DNA of 64,000 nucleotides from Verrucomicrobiota bacterium (lineage in GTDB: Bacteria > Verrucomicrobiota > Kiritimatiellia > CAIQIC01), in NCBI GenBank assembly GCA_004321905.1, contig SCQF01000053.1, forward strand, positions 39,192 through 103,191. The letters run 5' to 3'. The stretch's first letter is position 1. Every line of letters starts with the position of its first letter. Shown piece by piece: positions 4,062 through 60,506 of the stretch. The notes beneath the pieces are model-generated. The model had not been told where the DNA came from. It worked only from the letters and a program-made list of their open reading frames with translations, and made no database searches. Both the position numbers and the translations under genes were made by a program.

Positions 4062-4127
4062 CCAAGGTTTGGAGTTTTTTCCAAGCCTTGGAAAAACCGA
4101 CACCCGACTTTTCCAAGGCTTGGAAAA
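4062..4127. repeat. TTCCAA-N3-TTGGAA palindrome pair plus partial unit
   Basis: CCAA cores at 4081 and 4113 (32 bp apart), partial unit at 4062; ends 1 nt before the lepB ATG. Confidence 0.92.
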
Positions 4128-4128
4128 T

Positions 4129-5229
4129 ATGAACTTCTGGGAACGTCGAAAATACAAGAAACTGGTTGAAGCGCTTTTGCACGACGCGCAACACACGCGC
4201 GGGATGCGCGAAGACGTCGCCGATCCCGCCGACCTCGACCGGATGGAAGGCCTCGAACAGAAATTACGCGACGCCTTGAAGGCCCGGGACGCCAAAGGTG
4301 TAGACGCCTGCGCCGAAGAGCTTGGCCAGATGCGCATGAAGATTGCGCCGCCGCGCAAATATCCGGGTTGGCGCGAGAATATCGAGATGTTTATCGTCGT
4401 GCTGGCCGTCGCCACGGGCATCCGCGCCTATTTCATCTCGCCGTTCAAGATTCCCACCGGCTCGATGCAGCCGACGCTCAACGGCATCACCGCTGTGGCG
4501 CAAACAGAGCGCGGCTTGATGGATTACTTTCCGCTCAACATCGCCAGTTTTCTGCTGTTCGGCGAACGCTATGTTGAAGTGCGCGCACCGGAGTCCGGAG
4601 AAATCAACTACGTGCAGGGCGGCGAGGAATTTTATACGTTTGCCAACCAAGGACGCACCGTCCAAATTCCGAAAGCGTTTTTCGATGAAAGCAACCGCAG
4701 TACCTGTGTCTTTTTCCGTTATTTTGGAAGCGACGTGGTCGAGAAAGGGCAACTGCTGGCCGCCGGGCGCGTGCGCACCGGGGACATGATCATGGTGGAT
4801 CGTGTCCGGTACAATTTCCTGCCGCCAAAACGTGGCGATGTGATTGTGTTTCGAACGAAGAATGTCCATCATGCAGGTGTGCGTACGACCGATCATTATA
4901 TCAAGCGTCTGGTCGGCTTGCCGGGTGAAACCATCCGGATTGATCCGCCATATCTGGTCGTCAACGACAAGAAAGTTGAACAACCGTTTCCTTTCCACCG
5001 ACTGCTGACCGATCCGCGCTATGTTGGGTATACCTTGCCAGTCGGTTCAATGCTCGACACGCCCGCAGATTCGATTAAGGTCGGCTCCAACGAATTTCTG
5101 CCGTTTGGCGACAATACGCGATCGAGCCTTGACGGTCGCTACTTCGGGCCTGTGACCCGGAACGACTTACTCGGTCCAGCCTTTATGGTCTTCTGGCCAT
5201 TCACGGGACGCTGGGGCTTGGTTCGCTAG
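4129..5229 (+). CDS. lepB: Signal peptidase I with N-terminal helical extension
   Basis: PFKIPTGSMQPTL (catalytic Ser), YIKRLVGLPGE (catalytic Lys), GDNTRSSLDGRYFG; follows lepA. Confidence 0.95.
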   Translation: MNFWERRKYKKLVEALLHDAQHTRGMREDVADPADLDRMEGLEQKLRDALKARDAKGVDACAEELGQMRMKIAPPRKYPGWRENIEMFIVVLAVATGIRAYFISPFKIPTGSMQPTLNGITAVAQTERGLMDYFPLNIASFLLFGERYVEVRAPESGEINYVQGGEEFYTFANQGRTVQIPKAFFDESNRSTCVFFRYFGSDVVEKGQLLAAGRVRTGDMIMVDRVRYNFLPPKRGDVIVFRTKNVHHAGVRTTDHYIKRLVGLPGETIRIDPPYLVVNDKKVEQPFPFHRLLTDPRYVGYTLPVGSMLDTPADSIKVGSNEFLPFGDNTRSSLDGRYFGPVTRNDLLGPAFMVFWPFTGRWGLVR

Positions 5230-5320
5230 TTCATTCTCCAGCTTGCCTTGGAAGAGCAATCTACCGGAGAGCGCGCATCCTCACGCACTAAAACCATACG
5301 TGATGTTGGCCACGCGCCAC

Positions 5321-5372
5321 GTAGAAGCGACCTCCGGTCGCTTTTCCTGATGCGGACGGAGTCCGCATCTAC
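5321..5372. repeat. Inverted pair of GTAG-type REP-like hairpins
   Basis: GTAG-AAGCGACC-tcc-GGTCGCTT, and on the opposite strand GTAG-ATGCGGAC-tcc-GTCCGCATC. Confidence 0.7.
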
Positions 5373-5444
5373 GCCGGGGCTTCAGCCGGCCACATCATTT
5401 ATGGAAACGCTCTAAAGGTGACCTGCCACAGTTTCATCTATATA

Positions 5445-5472
5445 ACGTCGCATAATATATCTTATGTCTAGC
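5445..5472 (+). other. dif-like XerC/XerD recombination site
   Basis: ACGTCGCATAA-TATATC-TTATGTCTAGC has 11-6-11 geometry like E. coli dif (GGTGCGCATAA-TGTATA-TTATGTTAAAT); AT-rich convergent intergenic position. Confidence 0.7.
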
Positions 5473-5560
5473 ATATGATAGGTCGAACCGCAAGTAATTC
5501 GACTTTGGGTGGTTTCTGGGTTGCTTGGCTACTAGCGCGGGCCTGTTCGTAATTCTGCGA

Positions 5561-7027
5561 CTAAGTCTGCGGTAAGGCCTTCTTGGGCGCGATCTGATTA
5601 TAGATGTTGAGATATTCGCGTGCCGACTTGGTCCACGAGACATCTTGCTGCATGGCCCGAAGCATAAGGCTCTGCCACATCCCCGCCTTACAAAACCAAC
5701 CTAAGGCTTGATCGAGACTGGCCAACATAGCGGCGGGTTTATAGACGCTGAATTTGAACCCTGTCCCCTTGGTGCCGTCCGAACTGACCTGTTCGATGGT
5801 GTCATCCAGCCCCCCAACCGCCGTCACAAGCGGTATAGTGCCGTAGCGCATCGCATAGAGCTGGCTCAACCCGGACGGCTCGAACTTGGACGGCATCAGG
5901 AGCATGTCGGAGCCCGCGATGATCTTCCGGGCCAACGGCGTGTCGTAGTCCAGTTTAACGGCAAACCGATCGGGCCATTTCTGCGCCCATTGTCGGCATA
6001 GATCGTGATACTTCTGCATCCCCAAGCCCAAAATAACCAGCGACACATCGCGTTTCATGATCTCCGGCATGGCTTCCGCCAGCAAATCCATGCCTTTTTG
6101 GTCGGTCAGCCGTGTAATCATGCCGAGGATCGGTCGTTCCGCCTTCAGCGGCAGCCCCATCAGGTGTGCGAGGTTCAGACGGCAAGCCTGTTTACCTTCG
6201 AGTTTGCTCGGCTCGAAGCGCGCCGTGATCTGCTGGTCGGTACCAGGATCCCAATCGGCATAGTCCACGCCATTTTGGATGCCGACCAACTTCGGGCCGA
6301 GCCGGGAGAGCAACCCATGCAAGCCGCAGCCAAAAGCCTCGGTTTGGATTTCGCGCGCGTATGCGCGGCTGACGGTCGTCACGCAATCCGCCGACGTGAT
6401 CCCGGCCTTCATGCAACTCACGTTGCCGTAGAACTCAAAACCGTCCATATGAAAATAAAGAAACGGCAGATTGGTGATGCTATAGGCAGAGCCTGGGAAA
6501 ATGCCCTGAAAGGCCAGATTATGAATCGTGAACACCGTCCGTTCACGGGCCTCGCGCCCCATGCCACGCACGCCGTGACGTAGAAACAGCGGCAGCAAAC
6601 CGGTCTGCCAGTCATTACAATGCACCACGTCCGCCTTCAACTCCAGCGCATCAATCAACGCCACGACGGCTTTCTGAAAAAACACGAAGCGCTCAAAATT
6701 GTCGTCGTAATCCTTTTCCGGTGCGCCATACAGATGTGAGCGGTCAAAAAATTCGTCGCGGCGGATGAAGTACGTCGTGGGCGCCGGATCATCGGCGACC
6801 CAGATTTCCGCCGCGTAAGTCCGAAAGCCCACCGGCACTTCGATGCGCACGCCGGTGTCGCGCGGATGAAAACCGCGCTCGGCCACCAAATGGTACAGCG
6901 GCATGACGCGCCAGACTTCCACGCCCGGCTCGTGGGCCAGCGCCCGCGGCAGCGACCCGGCCACATCGGCCAGGCCGCCGGTGGAGGCGAAGGGATTGAT
7001 TTCACTGGCCGCGTACACGATTTTCAT
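5561..7027 (-). CDS. glgA: Glycogen synthase (GT5)
   Basis: STGGLADV, VVHCNDWQTG, FTIHNLAFQG and PSKFEPSGLSQLYAMRYG motifs. Confidence 0.95.
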   Translation of the reverse strand: MKIVYAASEINPFASTGGLADVAGSLPRALAHEPGVEVWRVMPLYHLVAERGFHPRDTGVRIEVPVGFRTYAAEIWVADDPAPTTYFIRRDEFFDRSHLYGAPEKDYDDNFERFVFFQKAVVALIDALELKADVVHCNDWQTGLLPLFLRHGVRGMGREARERTVFTIHNLAFQGIFPGSAYSITNLPFLYFHMDGFEFYGNVSCMKAGITSADCVTTVSRAYAREIQTEAFGCGLHGLLSRLGPKLVGIQNGVDYADWDPGTDQQITARFEPSKLEGKQACRLNLAHLMGLPLKAERPILGMITRLTDQKGMDLLAEAMPEIMKRDVSLVILGLGMQKYHDLCRQWAQKWPDRFAVKLDYDTPLARKIIAGSDMLLMPSKFEPSGLSQLYAMRYGTIPLVTAVGGLDDTIEQVSSDGTKGTGFKFSVYKPAAMLASLDQALGWFCKAGMWQSLMLRAMQQDVSWTKSAREYLNIYNQIAPKKALPQT

Positions 7028-7031
7028 AGTG

Positions 7032-7082
7032 TTTTCCAATCCTTGGAAATCGGCGGGCGCACTTTTTCCAAGCCTTGGAAAA
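7032..7082. repeat. TTCCAA-N3-TTGGAA palindrome pair
   Basis: Cores at 7036 and 7068 (32 bp); between divergent glgA and rnr. Confidence 0.92.
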
Positions 7083-10046: not shown

Positions 10047-10420
10047 GCCGTGGCTGCGGGCCGTAAGCCGGATTCTGTTTCGACGGTCATTTATCTACGC
10101 GATCAACCCGAAGCTTACTCCGCTTGCGCGGAAACGCGGCGGGCCGCCGCTCGCTTCCTATTTGATCTTGCTCCGGATGGGGCTTGCCCTGCCCCCGCCG
10201 TTGCCGGCGGAGCGGTGGTCTCTTACACCACCTTTTCACCCTTATCCCACAACCGCTCGCGCGGCGTGGGACGGTATATTTTCTGTGGCGCTATCCGTAC
10301 CCTTCGATCTGGCAAAGGGCCTCCCGGGTTATCCCCGAGACATCCCGCCCTGCGGAGTCCGGACTTTCCTCCCTCCCCGACTCACGTCGGGGACAGCGAC
10401 CGTCCGCCCGCAACCACGGC
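10047..10420 (-). ncRNA. rnpB: RNase P RNA (type A)
   Basis: Minus strand has GAGGAAAGTCCGGACTC near the 5' end and AACAGAATCCGGCTTAC near the 3' end; ends pair as P1 (GCCGTGGTTGCGGGC / GCCCGCAGCCACGGC). Confidence 0.96.
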
Positions 10421-10426: not shown

Positions 10427-10455
10427 AGTATAGCCGCTCACACGATGGCGTACAA
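10427..10455 (-). promoter_or_regulatory. Sigma70-type promoter for rnpB
   Basis: TTGTAC-N17-TATACT on the minus strand, overlapping the 3' end of the upstream CDS. Confidence 0.7.
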
Positions 10456-11142
10456 CATGCGCCCGCAATAATTGCAGGTCGTGATGGTTTGCCCACGGCG
10501 CGCGTCATGAATCACGCTGGGCGGCAGGGTCATGTGGCAACCGCCACAGCAACTTTTTTCCACCGGCACCATCGCAAAGTTGCCGGTCTTCTGCAAAATA
10601 CGCTCATAACGCGCGAGCCACGTCGCGTCCACACCCGCGGTCAATGCGGTGCGCTCGGCGCGCAACTGATCAAGTTCCTGCTGAATATTTTTGACCCGCG
10701 TTTCCAGGGTTTGGAACTCGGCCAGCACCTGTTTTTCCTCGGCTTGGAAATCCTGCTGGTGTTCGCCTTGCGTTTTTTGCAACGCTTCCATCCGCTCCAT
10801 CGCCACGATTTCCTGGTCTTCCAGCCCGCGGATCACCTTCTGTACATTGGCGATTTCGTGTTCGAGGGCTTTATACTCCTCGTTTTTCTTGGCCTGCAAC
10901 TGCTGATCGCGGTACTTCTTGATCTGCTCTTTTTTGCCCTCAATCTCGACTTCGAGGTTCTTGAGCGTGGCGGTATGTTTTTTGATTTCTTCCTGCGAGG
11001 CCTTGAGCGATTCGTGGTGCGCTTGCAGGCGCGACTCGATCAATTGCTTGCGGGCGGGGACATCCTTCTGCTCGCGCAGCAACTGTAGCATTTTCCGGTC
11101 GCGGTCCTGGAGCGTCAGCATTTTTTCGATGAGCGGTGACAC
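10438..11142 (-). CDS. Coiled-coil plus C4 zinc-ribbon protein (CT398/HP0958-like)
   Basis: Long coiled coil followed by CGGCHM...CNYCGRMLY; RBS GAAAGGA before GTG. Confidence 0.88.
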   Translation of the reverse strand: MSPLIEKMLTLQDRDRKMLQLLREQKDVPARKQLIESRLQAHHESLKASQEEIKKHTATLKNLEVEIEGKKEQIKKYRDQQLQAKKNEEYKALEHEIANVQKVIRGLEDQEIVAMERMEALQKTQGEHQQDFQAEEKQVLAEFQTLETRVKNIQQELDQLRAERTALTAGVDATWLARYERILQKTGNFAMVPVEKSCCGGCHMTLPPSVIHDARRGQTITTCNYCGRMLYAIV

Positions 11143-11656: not shown

Positions 11657-11676
11657 TTTTCCAGGCCTTGGAAAAA
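11657..11676. repeat. TTCCAA-N3-TTGGAA palindrome, single
   Basis: TTTTCCAGGCCTTGGAAAAA abutting the PHP stop codon. Confidence 0.85.
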
Positions 11677-14807: not shown

Positions 14808-14891
14808 TTTTCCAAGGCCCGGAAATCGTGAAGCAAAGGTTTTCCAACCATTGGGAACCCCGCCAACTCTCTATTCCAATGATTGGGAAAA
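14808..14891. repeat. TTCCAA-N3-TTGGAA palindrome triple (degenerate)
   Basis: Cores at 14812, 14844 and 14876 (32 + 32 bp). Confidence 0.85.
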
Positions 14892-16525: not shown

Positions 16526-16639
16526 GTTGTCTTTATACAGCCGTCCTTTCCGCGTCACGGTGGCAAGATAAGGCGGGCGACTTGTCTTGCCAAGCGGGAA
16601 AACATCTGTGCACAAAGAGAATCGAAAAGCAGTTCGTTG

Positions 16640-16657
16640 TTTCCACGCCTTGGAAAA
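16640..16657. repeat. TTCCAA-N3-TTGGAA palindrome, single
   Basis: TTTCCACGCCTTGGAAAA just upstream of TTGACG-N17-TAATGC. Confidence 0.8.
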
Positions 16658-18602: not shown

Positions 18603-18652
18603 TTTTCCAAGGTCTGGAAAATCAAGCGACGCATTTTCCCAAACCTTGGAAA
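18603..18652. repeat. TTCCAA-N3-TTGGAA palindrome pair
   Basis: Cores at 18607 and 18639 (32 bp). Confidence 0.9.
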
Positions 18653-18726
18653 CTCGATTCCAAAGGTGGCCCGCGACGTCCCCGGCGCGGGTTTTTCCGC
18701 CGTCCAGAGGCCGGCGGCCACTTGCT

Positions 18727-26286: not shown

Positions 26287-26291
26287 TAGAG

Positions 26292-26309
26292 TTTCCAAAC
26301 CTTGGAAAA
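26292..26309. repeat. TTCCAA-N3-TTGGAA palindrome, single
   Basis: TTTCCAAACCTTGGAAAA, intercistronic. Confidence 0.88.
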
Positions 26310-28579: not shown

Positions 28580-29695
28580 ATGAAAATATTCCGAACACAA
28601 CTCTGCGCTTTCCAAACCTTGGAAATTAGGCACGCCACTTTTTCCAAGGCTTGGAAACGCCTCGCGGTCACCTTGATGGCCACGTTCCCGCTTGTTGCCG
28701 CGCCGCCCGCGCCAACGCCCCAACCGATTCCGAACGACACGACACCGGATGCTGACGCCTTGTTTGCCAGGTTGTTCGCCAATCCAAAACCTGCGCTCAA
28801 GATCACTCCTCAAGAAGGCATTGGCTTTGACGATCCGCAACATAGCTTCCAAGACCCCAGCAACGTCATCAAGGTCGGCGACACCTATTATGTCTGGCTC
28901 TCGTGGCGGCCGCTGGATGTGCATGTCTATAACTCGGTGATCCATTACGCCACATCCAAGGACGGCAAAAAGTGGACGCAGCAAGGCCTCGCGCTCGGTA
29001 AGGGCGCGCCGGGCCGTTGGGATGATTTCGGCGTGCTGACGCCCTACGTCGCGGAAGCCAACGGGAAGTTCTACCTGTTCTATACGGGGGCCGATCGGAA
29101 TTTCTTCAAGGGCAGTGGCAATGCCATCGGTCTGGCCGTCGCGGATAAACCCGAAGGCCCGTGGACGCGCGTTTCTGACCAACCGGTGCTCGCGCCACCA
29201 ACCAATCCGAAGGCATGGGACAGCCATATCAATGATGACGCGCACGTCATCAAGCGCGACGGAAAGTATTGGCTGTATTACAAAGGCCATCCGAGCGGCA
29301 AGCATTGGACCTTGACACAACAAGGCGTGGCTATCGCCGACAAAATCGAAGGACCGTATGTGAAATATACCGGCAACCCGGTCATCAAGAGCGGGCATTG
29401 CTGTTGCGTCTGGCCGCACGCGGATGGCGTCGCCGCCATCGCCGACATCCCCAAAGAACTGCTTTGGGCCAAGGACGGTCTGCATTTTGTCGTGGTGAAA
29501 AAGGGCGGCTATCCCGGTGCTGGCCCCGGGCCGTATGACCCCGACGCACACACCGATACGAAATTCGGTCACGGCATCACGTGGGGTGTCACGCAATTCG
29601 GCCAGCCGACGCTGGACAGCAAAGATCGCTCGGTGGTCGCACGTTTTGATATGGATTTGCGCGCACGCAGCGACGCAGAAAAGGAAATAAAATGA
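28580..29695 (+). CDS. Secreted GH117/GH43-like five-bladed propeller glycosidase
   Basis: GGAG RBS, ATG 28580; FQDPSNVIKVGDTYYVW, IHYATSKDG..W, NDDAHVIKRDGKYWLYYKG, GVAIADKIEGPY.K..GNPV. Confidence 0.8.
   Translation: MKIFRTQLCAFQTLEIRHATFSKAWKRLAVTLMATFPLVAAPPAPTPQPIPNDTTPDADALFARLFANPKPALKITPQEGIGFDDPQHSFQDPSNVIKVGDTYYVWLSWRPLDVHVYNSVIHYATSKDGKKWTQQGLALGKGAPGRWDDFGVLTPYVAEANGKFYLFYTGADRNFFKGSGNAIGLAVADKPEGPWTRVSDQPVLAPPTNPKAWDSHINDDAHVIKRDGKYWLYYKGHPSGKHWTLTQQGVAIADKIEGPYVKYTGNPVIKSGHCCCVWPHADGVAAIADIPKELLWAKDGLHFVVVKKGGYPGAGPGPYDPDAHTDTKFGHGITWGVTQFGQPTLDSKDRSVVARFDMDLRARSDAEKEIK
28609..28657. repeat. TTCCAA-N3-TTGGAA pair inside signal-peptide coding region
   Basis: Cores at 28612 and 28644 (32 bp); encodes FQTLE...FSKAWK. 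Confidence 0.92.
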
Positions 29696-32286
29696 ACAAC
29701 GCATCAACAAAAAATAGCTGTTTCCAAGGTTTGGAAAAACCACACCGTAGAGTTTCCAAGGCTTGGAAACTCCTCGTGGTCACCTTGATGGCCACGTTCC
29801 CGCTTGTTGCCGCGCCGCCCGCGTCCCCTCCCCAGCCGATCCCGAATGATACGACGCCGGATGCGGAGGCGTTATTCGCCAAGTTGTTCGCCAATCCGAA
29901 ACCGGAACGCAAAGTCAGTGTCAACGAGGGGATCGGTTATGACGATCTGCAACACAGTTTTCAAGACCCCAGCAACGTGATCAAGGTGGGCGATACCTAC
30001 TATGTCTGGGTTTCCTGGCGGCCGTTGGATGTACATCTTTACAATTCGGTGATCCACTATGCCACGTCCAAAGACGGAAAGAAATGGGAACAGAAAGGTC
30101 TCGCGCTTGGCAAGGGGCCGGAAGGCAGTTGGGATGATTGGGGGGTGTTGACGCCCTACGTTGCAGAAGCCAACGGGCGGTTCTACATGTTCTACACCGG
30201 CGCGGACCGGAATTTTCTCAAGGGGAGTGTCAACGCGATCGGTCTGGCGGTGGCCGACAAACCCGAAGGTCCGTGGACGCGCGTTTTCGACAAGCCTGTG
30301 CTCGCGCCGTCGGGCAATCCAAAGGACTGGGATAACCAAATGAACGACGACGCGCATGTCATCAAACGTGATGGAAAATATTGGCTCTACTTCAAAGGCC
30401 ATCAAAGGGGAAGGAAGTGGTTTTTGACACAGCAGGGTGTCGCGACCGCGGACAAGATAGAAGGGCCGTATGTGAAATATGAAGGCAATCCGGTGATCAA
30501 GAGCGGGCATTGTGTGTGCGTCTGGCCACACAAGGAAGGCGTGGCCGCCATCGCCGACATCCCTGGAGAAATTCTCTGGGCCAAGGACGGATTGCATTTT
30601 GTCGTGGTTAACAAGGGAGTTTGGCGTGGCGGGGCCGGCCCTGGTCCTTATGATCCCGATGCCCACACGGACACCAAGTCGGGCAGCGGAATCACATGGG
30701 GCGTCATCCAGTGTGGAGATCCATCCGCCGACAATAAAAAACGCAATGTGATTGCGCGTTTCGACTTGGATCTGCGGGCGCGTGAACCCGGCACGAATCC
30801 AGCCCCTGCCGTGTCAACGAGCAACACCGTGCCACCTGAAAACATAGTGCTCAATTTTCACCTCATGCATCCCGGCGGCGACAGTAACCCCGGCGATCCA
30901 AATGCCGCCTTCTATCTCGATGACGTTTATCATCTCCACTACATCCTCGCGCATCCGTGGCACGGCAAGACTTCGTTCTCCTTCGTTCACGTGACCAGCC
31001 CGGACATGCTGCATTGGACGTGGCAGAAAACGACGTTACAACCGGCCTTTACGGGCCACGGGATGTTCAGCGGCACCGGCTTTCTTACGAAGGAAGGCAA
31101 GCCGGCCATTATCTATCAAGGGCAGGCCTCGGGCCGGAACCAGATCGCGCTCGCGAAAGACCGGCAACTGGCGGCGTGGGAGCCGCCTTACCCCGTCGAG
31201 GTCAAGACGTCCGACGGCAAGGTGGCGAAGATCGGGTTTTGGGACCCGGATTGCTTTCGTATCGGCGATACCTACTATGCCATTTCGGGCGAAGAAAATC
31301 CACCGCTGATGAAATCCAAGGACCTGAAAAATTGGACCTTGGTGGGGGATTTCCTCCGGCACAACATGCCGGATGTGACTTGTGGAGAGGACATTTCATG
31401 CGCCAACTTCTTCCCGCTCGGCAACAAATGGATGCTGCTGTGCATTAGCCATGCGCTCGGCTGCCGCTACTATCTCGGCGAGTGGAACGAAAAAGCCGAG
31501 CAGTTCGTTCCAGAAAAACATGGCCGCATGAACTGGCGCAGGGACGGGCAAAGCATCTACGGTCGGCCACCATGGCGGGTTGATTTCTTTGCGCCGGAAA
31601 GTCTGCTCACCCCGGATGGCCGCCGCGTCATGTGGGCCTGGCTTGCGACCATCGGCATGAATGACGGAAAAATGAGCAGCCAAACCATCCAGTCGCTGCC
31701 CCGCGAGTTGAGCTTGCCGTCCGATGGCAACTTACGCCTCAAACCCCTGCGCGAACTTGAAGCGCTCCGTTTCGATCCCGTGACCCTCAACGACATCAAA
31801 ATTGGTGAACTCACCAAGGCCGTGATCCCGACCACGGCTCCCGTCGGGAAAAAGATTACCACACTGGACGGCGATGCCATTGAGGTTCGCATTACCGTTG
31901 CGCGTGAGCAGGCCGCGCGAAAACTCTTCGGATTCACGCTCTTTGCGGACGGCAAAGGTGGCGGACTACCCATCATGTTCCGCCCCGAAACCGGCACGCT
32001 ACGCGTCGGTACCGCCGAGGCGCCATTTATGATTAACGATCTACCCGCAGGCGAAGATGTGGAATTACGCATCTTCATAGACAAATATCTCGTCGAAGTC
32101 TTTGTCAATGACCGTCAAGCCATCGTCGCCAGCTATGCAGATTACCTCGGCAAGCCCGACCTCAGCGCCTTCACCGTCGGCGCTCCCACGACGATCAAGA
32201 AACTTGAAATTTGGAAACTCAAGCCTACCATCCAAGGCTTCCGCGAAGCGCAGCAGAACCGTATTTGGGAACCCTGCGTGAATTAA
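29692..32286 (+). CDS. Secreted GH117-like plus GH32-like fusion glycosidase
   Basis: ATGA overlap with the upstream gene; N-half is a close paralog of 28580-29695; C-half has GDPNAAF..YHLHY, MFSGTG, WDPD, QSLPREL, LRIFIDKYLVEVF. Confidence 0.85.
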   Translation: MNNASTKNSCFQGLEKPHRRVSKAWKLLVVTLMATFPLVAAPPASPPQPIPNDTTPDAEALFAKLFANPKPERKVSVNEGIGYDDLQHSFQDPSNVIKVGDTYYVWVSWRPLDVHLYNSVIHYATSKDGKKWEQKGLALGKGPEGSWDDWGVLTPYVAEANGRFYMFYTGADRNFLKGSVNAIGLAVADKPEGPWTRVFDKPVLAPSGNPKDWDNQMNDDAHVIKRDGKYWLYFKGHQRGRKWFLTQQGVATADKIEGPYVKYEGNPVIKSGHCVCVWPHKEGVAAIADIPGEILWAKDGLHFVVVNKGVWRGGAGPGPYDPDAHTDTKSGSGITWGVIQCGDPSADNKKRNVIARFDLDLRAREPGTNPAPAVSTSNTVPPENIVLNFHLMHPGGDSNPGDPNAAFYLDDVYHLHYILAHPWHGKTSFSFVHVTSPDMLHWTWQKTTLQPAFTGHGMFSGTGFLTKEGKPAIIYQGQASGRNQIALAKDRQLAAWEPPYPVEVKTSDGKVAKIGFWDPDCFRIGDTYYAISGEENPPLMKSKDLKNWTLVGDFLRHNMPDVTCGEDISCANFFPLGNKWMLLCISHALGCRYYLGEWNEKAEQFVPEKHGRMNWRRDGQSIYGRPPWRVDFFAPESLLTPDGRRVMWAWLATIGMNDGKMSSQTIQSLPRELSLPSDGNLRLKPLRELEALRFDPVTLNDIKIGELTKAVIPTTAPVGKKITTLDGDAIEVRITVAREQAARKLFGFTLFADGKGGGLPIMFRPETGTLRVGTAEAPFMINDLPAGEDVELRIFIDKYLVEVFVNDRQAIVASYADYLGKPDLSAFTVGAPTTIKKLEIWKLKPTIQGFREAQQNRIWEPCVN
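29721..29769. repeat. TTCCAA-N3-TTGGAA pair inside signal-peptide coding region
   Basis: Cores at 29724 and 29756 (32 bp); encodes FQGLE...VSKAWK. Confidence 0.92.
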
Positions 32287-33934: not shown

Positions 33935-36900
33935 ATGAAAACAGTAAACAGCATGCGCCCGCGTTTCTGCCAAAGCTTGGAAGCCCCATGCGGTGTTTTT
34001 TCCAAGGCTTGGAACGCCCTTGTTTTCGCGCTCATCGCGATGGTGCCGATCTTTGCCGCGGCACCATTTAACGATGCTGCCGTGGTTTGGAATTTCACCA
34101 ACGAAAAGGATTCGGCGCAAAAATTTCCGCTGACCATTCACGGTAACGTACAATTAGGTGTTGGTTTGACAGCCGCCGCGCGCGCGGCATCGCTGGCGCG
34201 CGGTGGCGATGGCAAAGTGGCGCAATTTGACGGTGGCTATCTGGAGATTGGCGGGCCAGCCTTTGATCCACCCGGCGGAGAGTTCACGTTGTTGCTGCGC
34301 GTGCGGGATCCGCAGGGCGAGTGGAACGCACCGCTCTTTGGCAGCTACGGCGGTGACGGCGCGGTAAGTTTGTATCTGCATGGCGTGGATGGCGCGACGC
34401 TGCCGTTCGAGGACTACAACTACGGCGGCGGAAAAATGACCACGCCCGCCGCGTGGATGTTCGGCTGGCCGGAAGGCCCGCGGGCGATCCATGGCTCGCG
34501 TGGCGTGCTGGAGTTCCTTTGGGGCGCGAAGAATTGGCCGGTGCCTTTCGCGAAAATGCACATGCTGCCGCCCAAAAACCTGCCCAACTTGGAATCTGTG
34601 CCGCTCTATAGCGACGCGAAGAACGCCGTCATGCGCATCATGTTTCCGATGGAACCGCTGGGGCCGCGCGATTGGCACGATGTGATCGTGCGAGGCACGG
34701 GGCCGAAGTTACAACTCTGGATAGACGGCGTACTGCTCGATGAAGAATTTCCCCGCGGCACCACGCGGCCCGCGACCACGCCAAGATTTTTTGGCGCTGC
34801 ACAACTGGCCGATGGCCAGTTGCTCTCCGGCTTTCACGGGCAGATGGATCACGCGGCGCTATGGCATCGCGCCGTCACCGACGCAGAAATCGCCGCATTG
34901 AGCGGCGGTGAGAAATTATCGAAGCAGCGCGAACTGGCCGTGCTCGGCGCGCCGCCGGAACGAATGCAGTATTACCGACCCAGTGGCCACAATCTGAAGC
35001 CGGGCGATTGCATCCCGTGGTTTCACGATGGAACGTTCCACCTATTTTATCTGAACTTGCGACGCAACATGCACAGTAAATGGGACGGCGGTCACGGCGG
35101 ACTGGAGATCATGCATGCCTCGACTCGTGATTTGATCACATGGCGGCATCATCCGGTCGTTGCACCAATCTCCGAACCATGGGAGACGTGGAATGGCACC
35201 GGCGCGGCGGTATATCACGACGGGAAGTATTGGATGTTCTACCCCACCCCGGATTACTACGGCGACCACGGCGGCATTCAACTGGTCACCAGTCCGGATG
35301 GCGAACAGTGGACCAAGCAGTATCCGCATCCCTTTCTACCCGGCGGCGATTGCGAAATCTTCCCCGATCCCGATCCGGGCAAAAAACTTTTCCATATGAT
35401 CAAAATCGGCAAGACCTTTGGCAACACATTGCCAGAATTGAAGGATAAAACCCTGGTGGCATGGGTTTCGCCTGCCGATCTGGATCAGCATGGCGCGGGC
35501 ATACTGACTTTGGAAAGCAAGGCAGGACCTTTCGATTCGTTGGTCTTCGGCGAGTGCGTGCCACGGCGTTGGATGGCCGGCAGCGAGAACCTACAGCGCA
35601 CGCAGAAGGATCAGCAAAAGAATACGGAAGAGACGGCGAAAGCCGGCGAGTGGGTTCAGGTTGCCGCGGTTTATGCCGGCAAGACGGTTACGCTCTATCG
35701 CAACGGCGCACGCTATGCACAGTATGGTGTTGAGCAACCGCTGCACTTTGATGCTGGCGCGCGAATTCTGATCGGTCTGCGGCATTTCGCCATGCAGGAT
35801 GACGCCAAGGCGCACTTCCACGGTGCGATTGCCGATGCCCGCGTGTACAACGTGACATTAACCGATGCACAAATTGCGAAATTGCGCCCACATGAAGCCG
35901 CTGGCCCGAAGCCACTGGTCTGGTTCGATTTCAAAGCCGGCAATACCAGCGACCGCGCTGGTTTGCTCGCATCCGCCGAACTTAAAGGTGGCGCGGTGGT
36001 GTGCGACGGACGGTTGGTGCTCAACGGCGAAAAAGCCTATCTGGGGAGCAGCGGTCAGAAAGTAACGCTGGCGCATTGGATTTCGGAAGACCTCAAGGAT
36101 TGGAAGGAACTACCCGATCCGTTCTTGGAAACCGATGCGAACATCCACCCACAGATGTGCCCGAATTGGTTCCAGTGGAACGACTGGTATTATTTTGTCG
36201 GGGGTGGTGGTTACATCTGGAGATCGAAACAACCTTATGGTCCATGGACGATGCAATCACCCAGTCAGGTGGATTCGCTCGCCGTGCCGAAGGCGGCTGA
36301 ATTCCCCGGCAACCGCCGCATCTACGCGGGCTGGATGGGCGATGGCGGCTTCGGTGGCAACCTTGTTTTGCGTGACTTGGTGCAGTTCGAGGACGGTACG
36401 CTTGGCACCAAATTTGTGCCGGAAATGATTCCGCCCACCGGCGCACCAATCACGTTGAAAGAAACGGAACGCAACGCCCGGCTCGAAGCAAAATCAGGCC
36501 GCCAGCAAATCCTGCTCGACAATGTCCCCAATAATGCGCGCATCACGCTGACGATCGAACCGCAAGGCGTGATGAAAGCCTGCGGCTTGCGGCTGCGCAC
36601 CACCGATGGCGAACACGATGGCACGGAGTTCCGCCTCGACCCCCGCACCGCTCGCGCCTCCTATTCGCACAGCACGCACAGTGGCAGTGGCGGTCCGCTT
36701 GCCGGTGGCCGATCCATCGGCGGACTGCGCGGTCTCGGTAAGCCTGTGCAACTCGACGTCATTTGTCGCCACGATGTCGTGGATGTGGAAGTGGATGGAC
36801 GCCACACACTGGCCGGTTATTTTTGGAATCCAAAAGGCAACAAGCTCGGCATCTGGGTTGAAGGCGGCACGCTGCTCGTACGCGACGTGACGATCCGTCC

Positions 36901-36955: not shown

Positions 36956-36962
36956 ACGCCGG

Positions 36963-37010
36963 TTTCCAAGGCTTGAAAAAGGGTCGTTTCTTTTTTCCAA
37001 GCCTTGGAAA
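36963..37010. repeat. TTCCAA-N3-TTGGAA palindrome pair
   Basis: Cores at 36966 and 36997 (31 bp). Confidence 0.88.
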
Positions 37011-37049
37011 CCGCGTGCCATTTCGCGCCATTCGTGGTTTATTCCTCCG

Positions 37050-43371: not shown

Positions 43372-43372
43372 C

Positions 43373-44482: not shown

Positions 44483-44531
44483 TTTTCCAAGCCTTGGAAA
44501 AACACGTTTCAATTTTCCAAGGTTTGGAAAA
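44483..44531. repeat. TTCCAA-N3-TTGGAA palindrome pair
   Basis: Cores at 44487 and 44517 (30 bp); abuts a stop codon. Confidence 0.9.
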
Positions 44532-46454: not shown

Positions 46455-46474
46455 TTTTTCCAAGCCTTGGAAAA
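46455..46474. repeat. TTCCAA-N3-TTGGAA palindrome, single
   Basis: TTTTTCCAAGCCTTGGAAAA just upstream of TTGACT-N17-TATTTT. Confidence 0.9.
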
Positions 46475-46518: not shown

Positions 46519-47817
46519 ATGTCGCCGTTACAAAGTGATCTGGAGCGCTTGTTCACCCGCACGGGCCACGGCATCAAGTTTGGCCTCGAACCCACCGCTG
46601 CCCTACTCCACCGACTAGGCGATCCGCAGACGGCGTTGGCGCACGTACACGTCGCCGGCACCAACGGCAAAGGCTCCGTCTGCGCGCTGATCGAAAGCGT
46701 GCTACGCGCCGCCGGCCACCGCACCGCGCTCTATACCTCACCGCATCTCGTCCGCTTTAACGAGCGTATTCGCGTCAAGGGCCAGCCGATTGACGACGGG
46801 GCGCTCGCCGCCGTATTCCGCGACATCGAAGCCGCCGACCGTGCACAGGCCGCGACGCCCGGCGGACGCGAACTGACGTTTTTCGAGTTCACCACCGCGC
46901 TGGCGTTTGAATATTTCCGCCGCGTGGGCGCACAGATTTGCGTTTTGGAAACCGGTATGGGCGGACGACTCGACGCGACCAACGTGGTCACGCCGCTGGT
47001 TGCGGTGATTACAAGGATTGACCTTGAGCACACCGCTTTTCTTGGAAAAACACTGACGGAAATCGCCGGCGAAAAGGCCGGCATCATCAAGCCCGGACGG
47101 CCCGTCGTCTGCGGCCAGATGACGGAAGAAGCGCGCACGGTGATCCGCCGCGTCGCCCACGAACGCGGTGCGCGCTTTATCGCCGTCGAGGAAGCCGTCG
47201 GCGTGCGGCGGATGGCACAGACTTGGGATGGCCAGAAGGTGAAAATTGAGACGGCGAACGCCTCCTATCCGCCGATTACCGTACCGCTGCTCGGCGCGCA
47301 CCAACTGGAGAACATCGCGCTCGCCGCCGCCACGCTGGAATTACTGAACGATCTCTCACCGTTCGGCTGGGACGACAAAAGGTTGCGTACCGGTTTGGCG
47401 GACGTGCAGTGGCCGGGCCGCTGTCAGGTGCTTGAACGGCAACCGATCACGCTGCTCGACGTCGCGCACAATCCCAATGGTGCGACGGCCTTGGCCGCGA
47501 CGTTGCGCGAACTGGCCGGCAAAACGCCCGTCGGTTTGGTCTGCGGAATGTTGGGCGATAAAGATGCCGGCGGTTTCTTCAAGGCGCTCGCGCCACACGT
47601 GCAGAAGTGTTGGGCCGTACCGCTACCAAGCGAGCGTAATATGCCGGCGGCACAATTACGCGCCGCCATTGAAACAGCGGGACTGAAAGCCGATTTCCAA
47701 TCCTTGGAAAACGCACTCGCTGCTGCCCGCGCGTGGGCTGTGCAAAATCAAGGCCTCGTCTGCATCGCCGGCTCGCTCGTGCTCGCCGGCGAAGTGCTGC
47801 GCACGGCGGGCGCCTGA
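46519..47817 (+). CDS. folC: Folylpolyglutamate synthase / dihydrofolate synthase
   Basis: HVAGTNGKGS, YTSPHL..FNERI, ETGMGGRLDATN, EKAGIIK, WPGR, LDVAHN. Confidence 0.95.
   Translation: MSPLQSDLERLFTRTGHGIKFGLEPTAALLHRLGDPQTALAHVHVAGTNGKGSVCALIESVLRAAGHRTALYTSPHLVRFNERIRVKGQPIDDGALAAVFRDIEAADRAQAATPGGRELTFFEFTTALAFEYFRRVGAQICVLETGMGGRLDATNVVTPLVAVITRIDLEHTAFLGKTLTEIAGEKAGIIKPGRPVVCGQMTEEARTVIRRVAHERGARFIAVEEAVGVRRMAQTWDGQKVKIETANASYPPITVPLLGAHQLENIALAAATLELLNDLSPFGWDDKRLRTGLADVQWPGRCQVLERQPITLLDVAHNPNGATALAATLRELAGKTPVGLVCGMLGDKDAGGFFKALAPHVQKCWAVPLPSERNMPAAQLRAAIETAGLKADFQSLENALAAARAWAVQNQGLVCIAGSLVLAGEVLRTAGA
47694..47711. repeat. TTCCAA-N3-TTGGAA unit inside folC
   Basis: TTTCCAATCCTTGGAAAA encoding FQSLEN. 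Confidence 0.75.
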
Positions 47818-49500: not shown

Positions 49501-49509
49501 AACGCACTG

Positions 49510-49556
49510 TTTCCAAGGCTTGGAAAAACCATCGTTTCACTTTTCCAACCCTTGGA
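49510..49556. repeat. TTCCAA-N3-TTGGAA palindrome pair
   Basis: Cores at 49513 and 49545 (32 bp). Confidence 0.9.
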
Positions 49557-49655
49557 CTTGTCCGCCGTAACTCTTGAGCGAAGGCGGAAAACCCGCCACC
49601 CGCGGTTGCACCGTCAAGGGCTTTGGCGTAAAATGCCGCAACAGGAGATGAAAAC

Positions 49656-52208: not shown

Positions 52209-52227
52209 TTTTCCAAGCCTTGGAAAA
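52209..52227. repeat. TTCCAA-N3-TTGGAA palindrome, single
   Basis: TTTTCCAAGCCTTGGAAAA. Confidence 0.9.
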
Positions 52228-53889: not shown

Positions 53890-53939
53890 TTTTCCAAGGC
53901 TTGGAAACGGGAATATGTCGTTTTCCCAAACCTTGGAAA
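53890..53939. repeat. TTCCAA-N3-TTGGAA palindrome pair
   Basis: Cores at 53894 and 53926 (32 bp). Confidence 0.9.
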
Positions 53940-54032
53940 CCCCTGAAAAACTTTCGTCGTATCACCGCTTTGTTGGCATGTTCACTGCTTAAAATTAAAG
54001 ACGAAGCTCAAATTTCGCACGAAAGGTTACTT

Positions 54033-54444: not shown

Positions 54445-54495
54445 TTTTCCAATCCTTGAAAACATACGGCGTGAAATTTCCCAAACCTTGGAAAA
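54445..54495. repeat. TTCCAA-N3-TTGGAA palindrome pair
   Basis: Cores at 54449 and 54481 (32 bp); abuts the gatB stop. Confidence 0.9.
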
Positions 54496-58070: not shown

Positions 58071-58544
58071 ATGCCTGATGCGAAACGAGTACGCCCGGAT
58101 TGGGACACCTATTTCATGGACATCGCGCACACCGTGGCGCGGCGCAGCAACTGCTGCCGCCGCCAAGTGGCCGCCTTGATCGTCAGCGAGCAGCGGATCA
58201 TCTCCACCGGTTATAACGGCACCCCACGCGGCGTGAAGAACTGCATGGAAGGCGGTTGCCCGCGCTGCGCCGGCGACGCCGCTTCCGGCGCACACCTCGG
58301 CGAGTGCCTCTGCTCGCATGCCGAAGAGAACGCCATCGTACAAGCCGCCTACCACGGCATTGCCGTCCGTGGCGGAACACTCTATTCCACGATCAGCCCG
58401 TGCTTGCTCTGCGCCAAAATGATCATCAATGCCGGCCTGCGCGAAGTTGTCTATGAGGATGAGTATCACTTTTCGGCGCAGACCCGCGCGTTGCTGCGCA
58501 CCGCCGGCGTCAAATGCCGCCGCTTTCGGCGGAAAAGCGGTTGA
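58071..58544 (+). CDS. dCMP deaminase / ComEB-like deaminase
   Basis: RPDWDTYFM, RSNC.RRQV, TGYNG, HAEENAI, PCLLC. Confidence 0.92.
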   Translation: MPDAKRVRPDWDTYFMDIAHTVARRSNCCRRQVAALIVSEQRIISTGYNGTPRGVKNCMEGGCPRCAGDAASGAHLGECLCSHAEENAIVQAAYHGIAVRGGTLYSTISPCLLCAKMIINAGLREVVYEDEYHFSAQTRALLRTAGVKCRRFRRKSG

Positions 58545-58586
58545 CGTTCCCGTTGTGCGCCGGCCGAATGAAAAGCAACAGGCCGA

Positions 58587-58635
58587 TTTCCCAACCTTGA
58601 AAAACCGGCCGGCTGCTTTTTCCAACCCTTGGAAA
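58587..58635. repeat. TTCCAA-N3-TTGGAA palindrome pair
   Basis: Cores at 58590 (degenerate) and 58622 (32 bp). Confidence 0.85.
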
Positions 58636-58645
58636 CGCGTTGCGC

Positions 58646-59212
58646 TTAATGCGGCAAATTGATCCCCAACTTGGAAATCAGGACCACGATGAACGCGAAA
58701 TATATAATCATGAATAGGATGGTGGCGATGAACATCAAAATGTAGCCCCAGCCAACCAGCTTGAAAGATTTCAGCAGTTTTTCGAGAAAGGGATTCATAG
58801 GGGCGTCCACCGTGGCGATCCCGCTCAGCAGATTCTTCGCCCCCAGCAAGGCCGCGCCACCCATAATCATCGGGACACCGTAGATCAACCCAATGCAGGA
58901 GAGACAGGCAAAGACGCCCATGATGATGTGCACCACGCCCACGAACGTCATCCAACCCAAGCCGGCAAGCGCGGTGCTATTACCGCTCGCCGATGCGGGT
59001 GTCGCCGCTATACCGATTAGCGTGGCGCCTAGCGCGGTAGGCGCTTGCAGGGCGGCGACGCTGCTCGCGGATACCCAGTTGGCCAGGCCTTCGCTCCAGA
59101 CGAGTGTGCTGGTGGGGATTTGATTGCCGGTGAGCAAGCGTTGCAATTCGTGTTCCGGCACCGGCCCTTTTTTCTCCTGCCCATCCGCTGAATAGTACCA
59201 TTTTTTTTCCAT
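58646..59212 (-). CDS. GYF_2 (DUF4339) membrane protein
   Basis: WYYS..GQEKKGP...TLVWSEGLANW; C-terminal TMs. Confidence 0.82.
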   Translation of the reverse strand: MEKKWYYSADGQEKKGPVPEHELQRLLTGNQIPTSTLVWSEGLANWVSASSVAALQAPTALGATLIGIAATPASASGNSTALAGLGWMTFVGVVHIIMGVFACLSCIGLIYGVPMIMGGAALLGAKNLLSGIATVDAPMNPFLEKLLKSFKLVGWGYILMFIATILFMIIYFAFIVVLISKLGINLPH

Positions 59213-59276
59213 GGCTGGCTCCTGCCGTTAAGTTGCAAAAAGTGTAGCCGATGGCAGGCCGCGGGGCAAGCACAGG

Positions 59277-60458
59277 TCAGGGCAAGTGGAAACTTGTGCC
59301 GCGGGGCAGCGATGGCAAGCCGAAGAAGCTGGCGAGGGTTTGTGCGACATCGAAAAATCCTTGGCGGATGCCGAGATTATGTCCCGATCGGCCAGGCTGA
59401 TAAACCAACAGTGGAGCGAATTCGCGCGTGTGGTCGGTGCCGCGAAACGTCGGATCGTTGCCATGATCGGCGGTAATGATGAGCAAATCCTGCGGGGTGA
59501 GCAGCGGCAGGAAATCGCGAAGAAAAGCGTCGGTTTGTTCCAGCGCGGCGGCAAAACCGCGCGCATCGCGCCGATGGCCATAAAGCATGTCGAAGTCAAT
59601 GAAGTTGGCCATAATCAACCCGCGACTTTTTTCGCGGCAGAAACGGATGACCTGCTCCTGCGCGGCGCTGGTATGGCCGGTGTGCACGCTTTCGGTGATA
59701 CCACGATGCGCGTAGATGTCTTCGATTTTTCCGACCGCAAAGACCGGCACACCAAAATCTTTCAGCCGTTCCAGCACGGTTGGCTCTTCGGGGCGATAGG
59801 CATAGTCGCGGCGATCCTCGGTGCGCGTAAACGCGCCGGGCCGGCCAATGAACGGACGCGCGATCACACGCCCGACCTTGAGCGGATCGCATAATTCGCG
59901 AGCAATTTCGCAACCACGATAGAGTTCGGCCAGCGGAATCACGTCGGTGTGCGCCGCAAGTTGAAATACGGAATCGGCGCTAGTGTAGGCGATCCACGCG
60001 CCGGTACGCAAATGCTCCGGACCGAGTTCCTCAATAATCGCGATGCCGCTGGCGGCCTTGTTGCCGATGGTCTTGCGCTTGGTGCGACGCTCGAACTCCG
60101 CAATAAATTCCGGCGGAAACGAAGGATAGTCGTGTGGAAACAAATGGAACGGCGGATGAATTTTTAGTCCGGCCATTTCCCAATGGCCGGTGATGGTGTC
60201 CTTGCCGTCGGAAATTTCGCGCATCGCGCCGTAGCCACCCATCGGCTGCGCGACCGGCGGCACACCGGCAATCGGCAAGCCGCCGGGTAGCAGCGCCGGG
60301 ATGTTACCGAGTCCTAGTTTTTGGAACGTCGGCAACTTCAGCCCACCGATGGCGGCAGCGCAGTGCGGCAGCGTAGCGGAACCGGCGTCACCGTAGTCCG
60401 CCGCGTCCGGCGCGGCGCCGATACCGACGGAATCCAGCACGATGAGGACAGCCTTCAT
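59277..60458 (-). CDS. deoB: Phosphopentomutase
   Basis: IVLDSVGIG..PDAADYGD.G, GKDTITGHWEM, YTSADSVFQ, GRVIARPF, YGHRRD, TADHGNDP, DHTRE. Confidence 0.96.
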   Translation of the reverse strand: MKAVLIVLDSVGIGAAPDAADYGDAGSATLPHCAAAIGGLKLPTFQKLGLGNIPALLPGGLPIAGVPPVAQPMGGYGAMREISDGKDTITGHWEMAGLKIHPPFHLFPHDYPSFPPEFIAEFERRTKRKTIGNKAASGIAIIEELGPEHLRTGAWIAYTSADSVFQLAAHTDVIPLAELYRGCEIARELCDPLKVGRVIARPFIGRPGAFTRTEDRRDYAYRPEEPTVLERLKDFGVPVFAVGKIEDIYAHRGITESVHTGHTSAAQEQVIRFCREKSRGLIMANFIDFDMLYGHRRDARGFAAALEQTDAFLRDFLPLLTPQDLLIITADHGNDPTFRGTDHTREFAPLLVYQPGRSGHNLGIRQGFFDVAQTLASFFGLPSLPRGTSFHLP

Positions 60459-60485
60459 GCTTGAAAAATAGCAAAGCAATGGCGC

Positions 60486-60506
60486 TTTTCCAAGGCTTGG
60501 AAAAAA
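60486..60506. repeat. TTCCAA-N3-TTGGAA palindrome, single
   Basis: TTTTCCAAGGCTTGGAAAAAA. Confidence 0.9.

Follow-up and report, generated by a model that had tools for sequence, protein, structure and literature searches.

The DNA described here, called the window, is a stretch of 64,000 nucleotides from a Verrucomicrobiota bacterium (assembly GCA_004321905.1, contig SCQF01000053.1, positions 39,192 to 103,191 of the forward strand). It was found to contain a dense family of palindromes with the 19-base consensus unit TTTTCCAAGSCTTGGAAAA (read from the logo), mostly set in pairs whose units lie 31-32 bp apart, and the same family was found throughout the source genome (hereafter G000; 2.53 Mb assembly, 85 contigs, 59% G+C, 94% completeness). 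The loci of the window are listed below together with the genes around them. Gene names were assigned from Pfam matches and gene strands are given as + or -, whereas the palindromes are listed without strand.

4077..4127, pair at 32 bp, both units perfect, in the spacer between lepA (2247-4049) and the signal-peptidase gene lepB (about 4128-5229), 28 nt past the lepA stop.
7032..7082, pair at 32 bp, between the divergent glycogen synthase gene glgA (5561-7039, -) and an RNase R/II-type RNB gene (7140-9086, +).
10700..10753, degenerate pair at 33 bp with 1 and 2 core mismatches, within the open reading frame (ORF) 10438-11142 (-).
11657..11675, single, ending 1 nt short of the stop-codon end of the gene 11677-12516 (-).
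14808..14890, triple at 32 and 32 bp with degenerate units, between the genes 12672-14666 (-) and 14960-16471 (-).
16639..16657, single, in the divergent spacer of 14960-16471 (-) and 16726-17487 (+).
18603..18653, pair at 32 bp, between the genes 18084-18422 (-) and 18727-19371 (-).
26291..26309, single, 4 nt past the stop of the gene 24742-26286 and upstream of the GH32 gene 26340-28487.
28608..28658, pair at 32 bp, between the GH32 gene 26340-28487 and a GH43/GH32-like gene; the called start of the latter, 28619, falls within the pair.
29720..29770, pair at 32 bp, between the stop at 29695, 24 nt away, and the called start at 29776, 5 nt away.
33966..34016, pair at 32 bp, at the 5' end of a 992-aa GH32/LamG gene (ORF 33935-36955).
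36962..37011, pair at 31 bp, 6 nt past the stop at 36955.
44483..44531, pair at 30 bp, between the genes 43443-44396 (-) and 44532-44984 (-), abutting the stop of 44532-44984.
46456..46474, perfect single, upstream of folC and 44 nt from its start (ATG 46519).
47693..47711, single, inside folC, translated as DFQSLEN.
49509..49559, pair at 32 bp, 8 nt past the stop at 49500.
52209..52227, perfect single, 10 nt past the stop at 52198.
53890..53940, pair at 32 bp, 12 nt past the stop of the pseudouridine synthase gene 52873-53877.
54445..54495, pair at 32 bp, filling the convergent spacer between 54033-54410 (+) and gatB (54496-55920, -).
58586..58636, pair at 32 bp, filling the convergent spacer between 58071-58544 (+) and 58646-59212 (-).
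60486..60504, perfect single, in the divergent spacer of 59277-60458 (-) and 60730-61782 (+).

The segment 24742-37787 was found to contain a run of GH32/43 genes with LamG-type domains, likely for fructan use, with motif units at nearly every gene junction.

The core TTCCAA-N3-TTGGAA was present in 20 exact copies in the window against 0.01 expected, and none of 100 shuffles reached 20. A core scan with up to 2 mismatches yielded 41 sites (2.57 expected; 6 in the largest shuffle), and scoring of the full 19-mer at 18 positions with up to 4 mismatches yielded 37 units in 24 clusters, namely 12 singles, 11 pairs and one triple; the original prediction, an earlier note made from the letters of the window, had given about 38 units at 23 loci. 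Across G000, 856 exact cores were found, and 1,314 units of the motif at up to 4 of 18 mismatches as against 14 for the reversed motif. After the removal of 161 of 971 clusters, all of them lone sites with 2 core mismatches, 810 loci remained, consisting of 491 pairs, 304 singles, 14 triples and one quadruple; in comparisons within the genus the arrays ranged from 1 to 5 units per locus. The centre triplets of the 856 exact cores were mostly GGC (220), GCC (216), ACC (94), GGT (92), GGG (53) and CCC (39), which is the predominance of nCC and GGn noted earlier. Outside the 19 bases the information content was about 0.05 bit per position and no conserved foot was found; the GTAG/CGTC foot of repetitive extragenic palindromic (REP) elements is thus lacking, as had been said. 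The motif was the dominant repeat of G000, the only other high-copy words being a CRISPR-type repeat and G+C-rich simple sequence. The CRISPR-type repeat, of about 28 bases, was present in about 38 copies on several contigs.

The distance between units was found to be strictly kept. Among the 1,436 neighbour intervals of the genome, 443 were of 32 bp, 58 of 31 bp, 4 of 33 bp and 3 of 30 bp, so that the genome-wide histogram of inter-site distances, proposed with the original prediction, contained its peak at 31-32 bp; a distance of 32 bp corresponds to about three helical turns. By the core scan of the window, 14 loci contained 2-3 units, exactly as claimed before, and twelve of their 15 intervals were of 32 bp, also as claimed, whereas the remaining three were of 33, 31 and 30 bp and not of 31, 31 and 30 bp (10702/10735 being 33 bp apart; the earlier coordinates equal the core starts plus 2). 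Both relative orientations were present within pairs, as had been seen, but their use was not random: the order of centre bases (n=483) was GC in 241 pairs, followed by GG in 88, CG in 69 and CC in 64, which gives 310 inverted combinations (GC and CG) against 152 direct ones (GG and CC). The inner flanks, which face the spacer, were better conserved than the outer flanks (57 vs 165 and 95 vs 182 mismatches), and the base adjoining the centre was better conserved on the outer side. This asymmetry of inner and outer flanks indicates that the 51-bp pair is one dyad-symmetric object.

Variant bases common to both units of a pair numbered 55 in the direct and 73 in the inverted comparison, against 58 and 72 in shuffles, and with no excess neither unit appears to be a recent copy of its partner. 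Spacers showed no likeness to the flanks above that of shuffles, direct or inverted, which argues against target duplication and against tandem duplication of 32 bp; self-complementarity of the spacers gave no signal. Decayed partners at 31-33 bp beside intergenic singles were found at 2%, 5% and 1% of the tested flanks and at essentially none in genes, so the singles are mostly genuine singles. The 13-nt spacer carried about 0.05 bit per position and is to that extent as free as had been proposed, but a weak family around one ancestral spacer exists: 307 spacer pairs differed at 3 positions or fewer against 101 in column shuffles, an oriented spacer model reached 2.65 bits against 1.9-2.0 in controls, and spacers that were identical or differed by one base were found at a few unrelated loci. 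Such like spacers at unrelated loci point to some copying of whole pairs, mostly long ago.

Changes in the arms were found to be one-sided, and compensatory double changes amounted to only 0-3 per core stem position among the 1,314 units, which argues that the sequence is read and not a structure. No strand preference was found for centres compatible with G.U pairing (GGT 63 vs ACC 80 on the sense strand), a comparison that is uninformative because the centre forms the loop.

Along the genome, 612 of the 810 loci were intergenic, 45 lay no more than 50 codons from a called start, and another 153 lay deeper (beyond 50 codons) in called genes. Genes were called by a crude caller based on codon usage, which sets starts too far upstream (by 423 nt for folC), and for that reason the 45 loci were held separate from the deep class. 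About three quarters of the loci thus fell in non-coding DNA, which makes up 12% of the genome. The distance from a stop codon to the element was 0-9 nt in 271 of 611 cases (median 11) and that from the element to a start had a median of 75 nt; in tandem spacers the element was closer to the stop in 260 cases and closer to the start in 104. Convergent spacers were filled by the elements (medians 9 and 11 nt), and in divergent spacers the element stood mid-way. An element was present at 113 of the 229 convergent junctions, at 105 of the 245 divergent ones and at 360 of the 1,564 tandem ones, and the placement described earlier, in convergent, divergent and tandem spacers and inside coding sequences, was found in full.

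The mean gap between loci was 2.86 kb, with a coefficient of variation of 0.65; simulations gave 0.98 +/- 0.03 when loci were placed uniformly and 0.86 +/- 0.03 when they were put at random gene ends. In-gene loci were found to occupy larger gaps (6,293 bp vs 5,066 bp expected), and 68% of them lay in the middle half of their gap (Kolmogorov-Smirnov p = 0.033). The 810 evenly spaced loci support the view, taken from the start, that the motif is not a regulon-specific operator. In the only nine 5-kb segments of less than 54% GC there were 0-0.75 loci per 10 kb, as compared with 3.4-3.6 in typical segments. The largest locus-free gap, 19 kb in length (G000:C18:41119-60223), had 46-57% G+C, weak coding scores and no unit, and is probably recently acquired DNA.

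Inside genes, all six reading frames of the unit were found to be open, the 51 bases of a pair amount to 17 codons, and about 90 pairs form part of a continuous reading frame, flanked on both sides by a coding signature. FolC of G000 contained ADFQSLENAL, and four aligned orthologues contained ADY(L/A)PL.. of the same length, which indicates that the left arm was built by changing several codons. The aroB pair lay inside the Pfam domain DHQS_C (match 1-144 of 144), and the corresponding stretch in the low-copy sister genus contained the native LFQTLEA...AQPWG with 6 and 8 mismatches to the motif. The pairs of hydF and of a phosphodiesterase gene had equal-length orthologues without the motif, and the phosphodiesterase pair was also present in a genome of another family. 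No length change was found in four of the six gene cases examined (folC, aroB, hydF and the phosphodiesterase gene), where the units arose in place by substitutions and not by insertion; the picture for murC was mixed, and the rluD alignment was without any motif-free orthologue. Arrays were also found to differ by whole units, with four units in rluD of one species and three in murC of two species, and the same-genus orthologue of the GH32/LamG gene 33935-36955 contained a 5-unit array extending the N-terminus in frame. The in-gene pairs were placed in inter-domain linkers or just past signal peptides. The motif has left an imprint on the proteome, in which the peptide FQxLE was found 124 times against 2 for its reverse, followed by FPxLGK (32 vs 0) and FSKxWK (29 vs 0).

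At least ten sulfatase paralogues with signal peptides of the twin-arginine type were found in the segment G000:C66:96906-122381; in each, a pair stands where the signal peptide gives way to the mature domain and translates as about 17 residues (e.g. FPRLGK....FQGLEK); the sulfatase domain was confirmed for one of them.

By their record titles, the motif-bearing organisms are known only as metagenome-assembled genomes (MAGs). G000 was compared with three genomes of the same genus (G001, G002 and G003) and two of the sister genus (G004 and G005), which together form a six-genome family. Exact 19-mers numbered 231 in G000, 420 in G001, 111 in G002 and 27 in G003, followed by 1 and 1 in the sister genus; elsewhere in the order 0-9 were found, and control counts were 0. 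At 2.5 Mb and 94% completeness, G000 is far smaller than the other three genomes of its genus (5.3-7.2 Mb), which implies either strong genome reduction or a heterogeneous genus.

A scan of species representatives yielded at least 96 motif stretches, nearly all of them from lake MAGs titled Lentisphaerae, Kiritimatiellaeota/-ales or Verrucomicrobiota, and in at least eight assemblies among the matches listed the motif recurred with its 31/32-bp geometry and free spacer, an outcome in line with the search of related genomes suggested earlier. Five further genomes contained 50-406 units at up to 2 mismatches, some of them favouring other centre triplets, and these variants amount to dialects; no abundant 12-mer was found in the 400 kb scanned of a genome of another family (G011). 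At three loci of one MAG of 54% G+C (L030, L053 and L098) the spacing was 52-65 bp, in one case with a G+C-rich hairpin between the units. The median protein identity between G000 and one same-genus record was 64% (167 genes with a match; 52 loci compared). At 54 conserved gene junctions, the element was present in both species at 6, in neither at 45 (about half of which are too short for an element) and in only one at 3; in the junctions with an element in both species, the arms were kept and the spacers had diverged.

ComEC was found in G000, G001 and G002, whereas neither the family model nor a search with the G000 protein detected it in G003, G004 or G005; it was present in 38 of 41 relatives, these three being the only ones in which it was not found. 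Units at up to 2 mismatches numbered about 368, 327 and 116 per Mb in G000, G001 and G002, against 40, 3.5 and 2.3 in G003, G004 and G005. Among units with 3 mismatches or fewer, exact ones made up 19% in G001 and 9% in G002, as against 5%, 4% and 5% in G003, G004 and G005, and in five orthologous in-gene pairs G003 was each time the most or nearly the most degenerate. All five further motif-bearing genomes contained ComEC. The surroundings of ComEC were not syntenic even in G002, and the uptake genes found in G000 were those for ComEC, DprA and secretins. As to the proposed search for a gene co-occurring with the motif, motif density and fidelity track ComEC within the six-genome family; RAYT-like and N6/N4 methylase genes do not follow the motif.

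The mobile element, the REP/RAYT system and the Ssn/NTS system each failed its defining tests, as set out below, and what is left is a sequence read in duplex DNA under a directional force. Judged from the sequences, it is probably a duplex-DNA signal read by a dimer of dimers. With a rough probability of 0.4, it is interpreted here as a clade-wide signal of the DNA-uptake type, which would be read as a dyad and spread by biased fixation. Such a signal would be generated and kept in place by a directional process and would not be inserted as a mobile element. A DNA-uptake receptor, probably a dimer of dimers, would favour fragments containing the signal, and alleles matching the signal better would be taken up and recombined more often. 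These alleles would then spread until about every 3 kb of native DNA has a site, and the sites would settle at the lowest cost, that is just past stops, in convergent spacers and in linkers or poorly conserved gene segments.

The uptake interpretation was placed first because even spacing, dyads past genes, spread by substitution into tolerant coding positions, peptide enrichment, absence from foreign DNA, dialects and decay where ComEC was not found match uptake sequences. According to excerpts of PMC2817400, the uptake signal sequences (USS) of Pasteurellaceae and the DNA uptake sequences (DUS) of Neisseriaceae resemble the motif in that they occur in hundreds to thousands of copies, are common to relatives and have variant forms; they are spaced more evenly than chance and are lacking from recently acquired genes. 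They are also under-represented within genes, where they stand at poorly conserved positions and enrich the proteins in the peptides that they encode, and they often form dyad pairs just downstream of genes (PMC2817400, same excerpts). For the host of the present motif, which belongs to the Planctomycetes-Verrucomicrobia-Chlamydiae (PVC) group, no uptake signal is in print, and the portion of bioRxiv 10.1101/2025.10.24.684340 used here names only the two proteobacterial families for uptake sequences.

Several points were found to weigh against an uptake signal. The textbook readers of a strict three-turn dyad are cooperative DNA-binding regulators and nucleoid proteins, and to our knowledge no uptake receptor is known to have such a geometry. 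About 36 bases are specified per pair, far beyond the apparent need of uptake specificity, and the bias towards non-coding DNA, with about three quarters of the loci in 12% of the genome, is much stronger than that reported for known uptake sequences. The cores of USS and DUS are described in the excerpts of PMC2817400 as non-palindromic and 9-12 bases long, in contrast to a 19-base palindrome mostly paired at 31-32 bp. The presence of the same spacers at unrelated loci and the growth of arrays by whole units mean that there has been some copying too. The ComEC contrast comprises six related genomes with perhaps two loss events, the ComEC-negative genomes being 94, 87 and 82% complete, and ComEC is present in 38 of 41 relatives, most of which contain few or no motif copies, so ComEC is not sufficient. 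A ComEA-type helix-hairpin-helix domain was not over the cut-off in G000 and G001, which are the richest in the motif, and was found in G002, G003 and G005. Natural transformation is not documented for this group, no literature being found that joins it with uptake sequences and the Verrucomicrobia.

With no ComEA-type domain over the cut-off in G000 and G001, a contrast of six genomes, known USS and DUS that are short and asymmetric, and the classical form of the three-turn dyad, the main rival account keeps its place as a possible, if less probable, one. It holds that the pairs are phased sites for an abundant nucleoid-associated or insulator protein, with a dimer on each palindrome and cooperation across three turns, kept by ordinary selection where transcription units end and at regular intervals, for instance as topological or domain boundaries. 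The palindromic unit, the dyad-symmetric pair with its better kept inner flanks, the strict 31/32 bp spacing around a free spacer and the one-sided arm changes that point to sequence reading all agree with such a protein, as do the placement at gene ends, the regular spacing and the deep conservation at orthologous places. NrdR boxes and the sites of Lrp/FFRP proteins are tandem palindromic operators three turns apart, where cooperating dimers bind on one helix face. They have the same centre spacing of 31-32 bp and a free spacer, but they serve a few promoters, whereas the motif has about 810 loci, most of them at the ends of genes and some within genes.

A parallel to this choice of accounts is HIP1 (GCGATCGC) of cyanobacteria, likewise a palindrome that is hyper-abundant both in genes and in the spacers between them, quasi-regular along the chromosome and kept at orthologous sites. 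So far as the excerpts of PMC5861425 and PMC13756078 go, its function is disputed between nucleoid structure (argued in PMC5861425) and DNA-uptake recognition. Its link with gene-transfer machinery was inferred by phylogenetic correlation (PMC13756078, in the part used), as was tried here with ComEC. HIP1 differs in having 8 bases, no pairing and two cognate methylases, whereas the motif has 19 bases and pairs at a fixed distance, and a search of G000 gave no C5 methylase. A nucleoid or insulator site is made less probable by several observations: no candidate protein turned up, selection would need to hold about 36 bases at several hundred loci, sites have been forced into essential coding sequence at a cost in amino acids where a bound roadblock should be harmful, and the decay of the motif in the three ComEC-negative genomes would be a coincidence. 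The original prediction of phased sites for a dimeric, cooperatively binding protein is partly supported: the geometry is conserved around a free spacer, and the dyad symmetry and the arms kept at the sequence level fit such a protein. Of the roles that it named, uptake is favoured over a chromosome organiser, but only moderately.

An improbable account is that of a selfish hairpin like a REPIN, in which the 51-bp pair would be copied or converted as single-stranded DNA by a putative hairpin-specific enzyme, so that arms would be kept by conversion and loops would drift. When folded as single strands, four pairs of the window each gave one hairpin with a stem of 19-22 bp and a loop of about 13 nt, at -14 to -23 kcal/mol with z-scores of -3.8 to -9.0, and both strands were alike. 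The excess of inverted centres, the recurrence of near-identical spacers at unrelated loci (identical or one base apart; also 307 vs 101 at up to 3 differences) and the arrays differing between species by whole units fit this account as well. REP/BIME and REPIN-RAYT systems resemble the motif in comprising hundreds of short palindromes, mostly intergenic and past 3' ends, with inverted doublets forming a long hairpin, and REPINs persist vertically for long times, as the motif does.

Several Y1 proteins of the RAYT-like kind are encoded in G000, as are three small GIY-YIG proteins, but units on both sides were found at 0 of 5 Y1 genes in G000, 0 of 5 in relatives and 0 of 3 GIY-YIG genes. The best Y1 gene was flanked by a different palindrome with only 3 genome copies, and RAYT-like homologues were found in 34 of 41 relatives regardless of motif content. 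The motif further differs from REP and REPIN in being without a GTAG-type or other conserved foot, without compensatory stem changes and without target duplications; its in-gene copies are without length change, and the units of a pair have no common variant bases beyond chance. REP and REPIN are extragenic, whereas 153 of the 810 motif loci lie deep in genes, several of them Pfam-confirmed, and the same sequence is found across genera and families.

In-frame palindromes are also known from Rickettsia, where palindromic elements are inserted in genes in frame and add peptide segments. They resemble the motif as palindromes read in frame and differ from it as insertions, four of the six motif cases being without length change. 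Another palindrome, the dRS3/NTS of Neisseria with its Ssn nuclease, is according to excerpts of PMC11893778 likewise abundant, about 20 bases long and similar in its outer arms (ATTCCC-N8-GGGAAT), and is described there as hairpin-forming and tied to natural transformation. NTS has an oriented non-palindromic flank, whereas nothing is conserved outside the 19 bases of the motif, and the NTS-ssnA-NTS gene arrangement was not seen in G000, whose three GIY-YIG genes stand in tRNA duplications. A link with Ssn/GIY-YIG was rejected, none of the three small single-domain genes being flanked on both sides; one had a pair about 100 bp downstream.

The genes of these families in G000 gave some side observations. 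An IS200-type Y1 transposase gene (G000:C36:73341-73793, locus L101) was flanked by its own G+C-rich palindrome, present in 3 copies and unrelated to TTTTCCAAGSCTTGGAAAA. The alanyl-tRNA synthetase ORF of 1,098 aa at G000:C53:24539-27835, outside the window, embeds a Y1-transposase/RAYT-like domain (PF01797, 25904-26194), and a second RAYT-like domain was found at G000:C53:15271-16557, fused to an RdgB/HAM1-like ORF. The GIY-YIG ORFs (G000:C79:41536-41790, C79:78886-79146 and C9:3030-3356) each adjoin a tRNA gene, and at both C79 ORFs a second copy of the 3' part of the tRNA stands beyond the ORF, as if small islets had been inserted into tRNA genes.

A role at the RNA level, in which a 3'-end hairpin would terminate transcription or protect the upstream message in the manner of enterobacterial REP, is very improbable. 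Loci just past stop codons or filling convergent spacers would suit it, as would the like hairpin from both strands, which a two-way terminator would have. The stem ends, however, are A/T-rich, with a T run before the stem and an A run after it; no unit in 24000-43999 was called terminator-like, and the 25 terminator-like sites found there compare with 24.7 in shuffles. Pairs are also present within operons (lepA-lepB), in 105 of 245 divergent spacers and in essential genes, and the stems are without compensatory changes. An Rfam scan of the window found RNase P RNA only and no family at motif units; the gene, of the bacterial class A type, lies at 10048-10415 (-) with 230 bits.

A by-product of sequence-specific methylation and biased repair, which has at times been proposed for short iterated palindromes, is hardly credible: the motif does include CCWWGG-type sub-palindromes (read from the sequence), but we know of no repair system that reads 19 bases, no C5 DNA methylase domain was found in motif-rich G000, and N6/N4 methylase domains were present in 6 of 6 family genomes whatever their motif content. 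The one parallel in its favour is HIP1, tied to two methylases in the excerpts of PMC4390886 and PMC13756078. Three further candidates were rejected. A copied miniature inverted-repeat transposable element, against which the original prediction had already argued, fails on the lack of target-site duplications, on spacers and flanks no more alike than shuffles, on a spacer family that is only weak and on in-gene copies without length change. A CRISPR-like array fails on the inverted preferred arrangement (GC in 241 of 483), on units without common variants (55 vs 58 expected) and on the 1-5 units at about 810 loci. A phage origin fails on the finding of one exact site each in only 5 viral contigs.

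A literature search, with supplementary files outside its scope, found no description of the 15-mers of the motif and no relevant paper on Kiritimatiell* palindromes, so the earlier statement that this is not a described system stands. The architecture is new, and the phylum was without a previously known genome-saturating recognition signal. That the motif would be the first uptake signal outside the Proteobacteria (save the debated HIP1), with a three-turn dyad architecture, a dimer-of-dimers receptor, a grip that rewrites linkers and loops of essential proteins, an imprint on the proteome and decay upon ComEC loss, is offered tentatively, being slightly less probable than the uptake type as such.

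Genome-saturating recognition signals are known from few groups, namely two proteobacterial families and the cyanobacteria, and they are informative on the discrimination of self from foreign DNA or on chromosome folding. The present case is unusually clean and extreme, with about 36 bases per site, three-turn geometry, about 1,300 units in 2.5 Mb and units shown to have arisen in place in essential genes. The family, which spans from full fidelity to relics, offers a natural experiment in which the reader protein might be sought by phylogenetic correlation. For annotation it means that many gene starts and apparent insertions in motif-bearing genomes have been shaped by the motif. If it is the site of a nucleoid protein, it would be among the most sequence-specific and regularly placed bacterial chromosome-organising sites known. 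If it is an uptake signal, self-preferring natural transformation would also be a trait of the PVC group and of lake bacteria known without culture, and the uncultured freshwater Kiritimatiellales would be naturally transformable and would police their own gene exchange.

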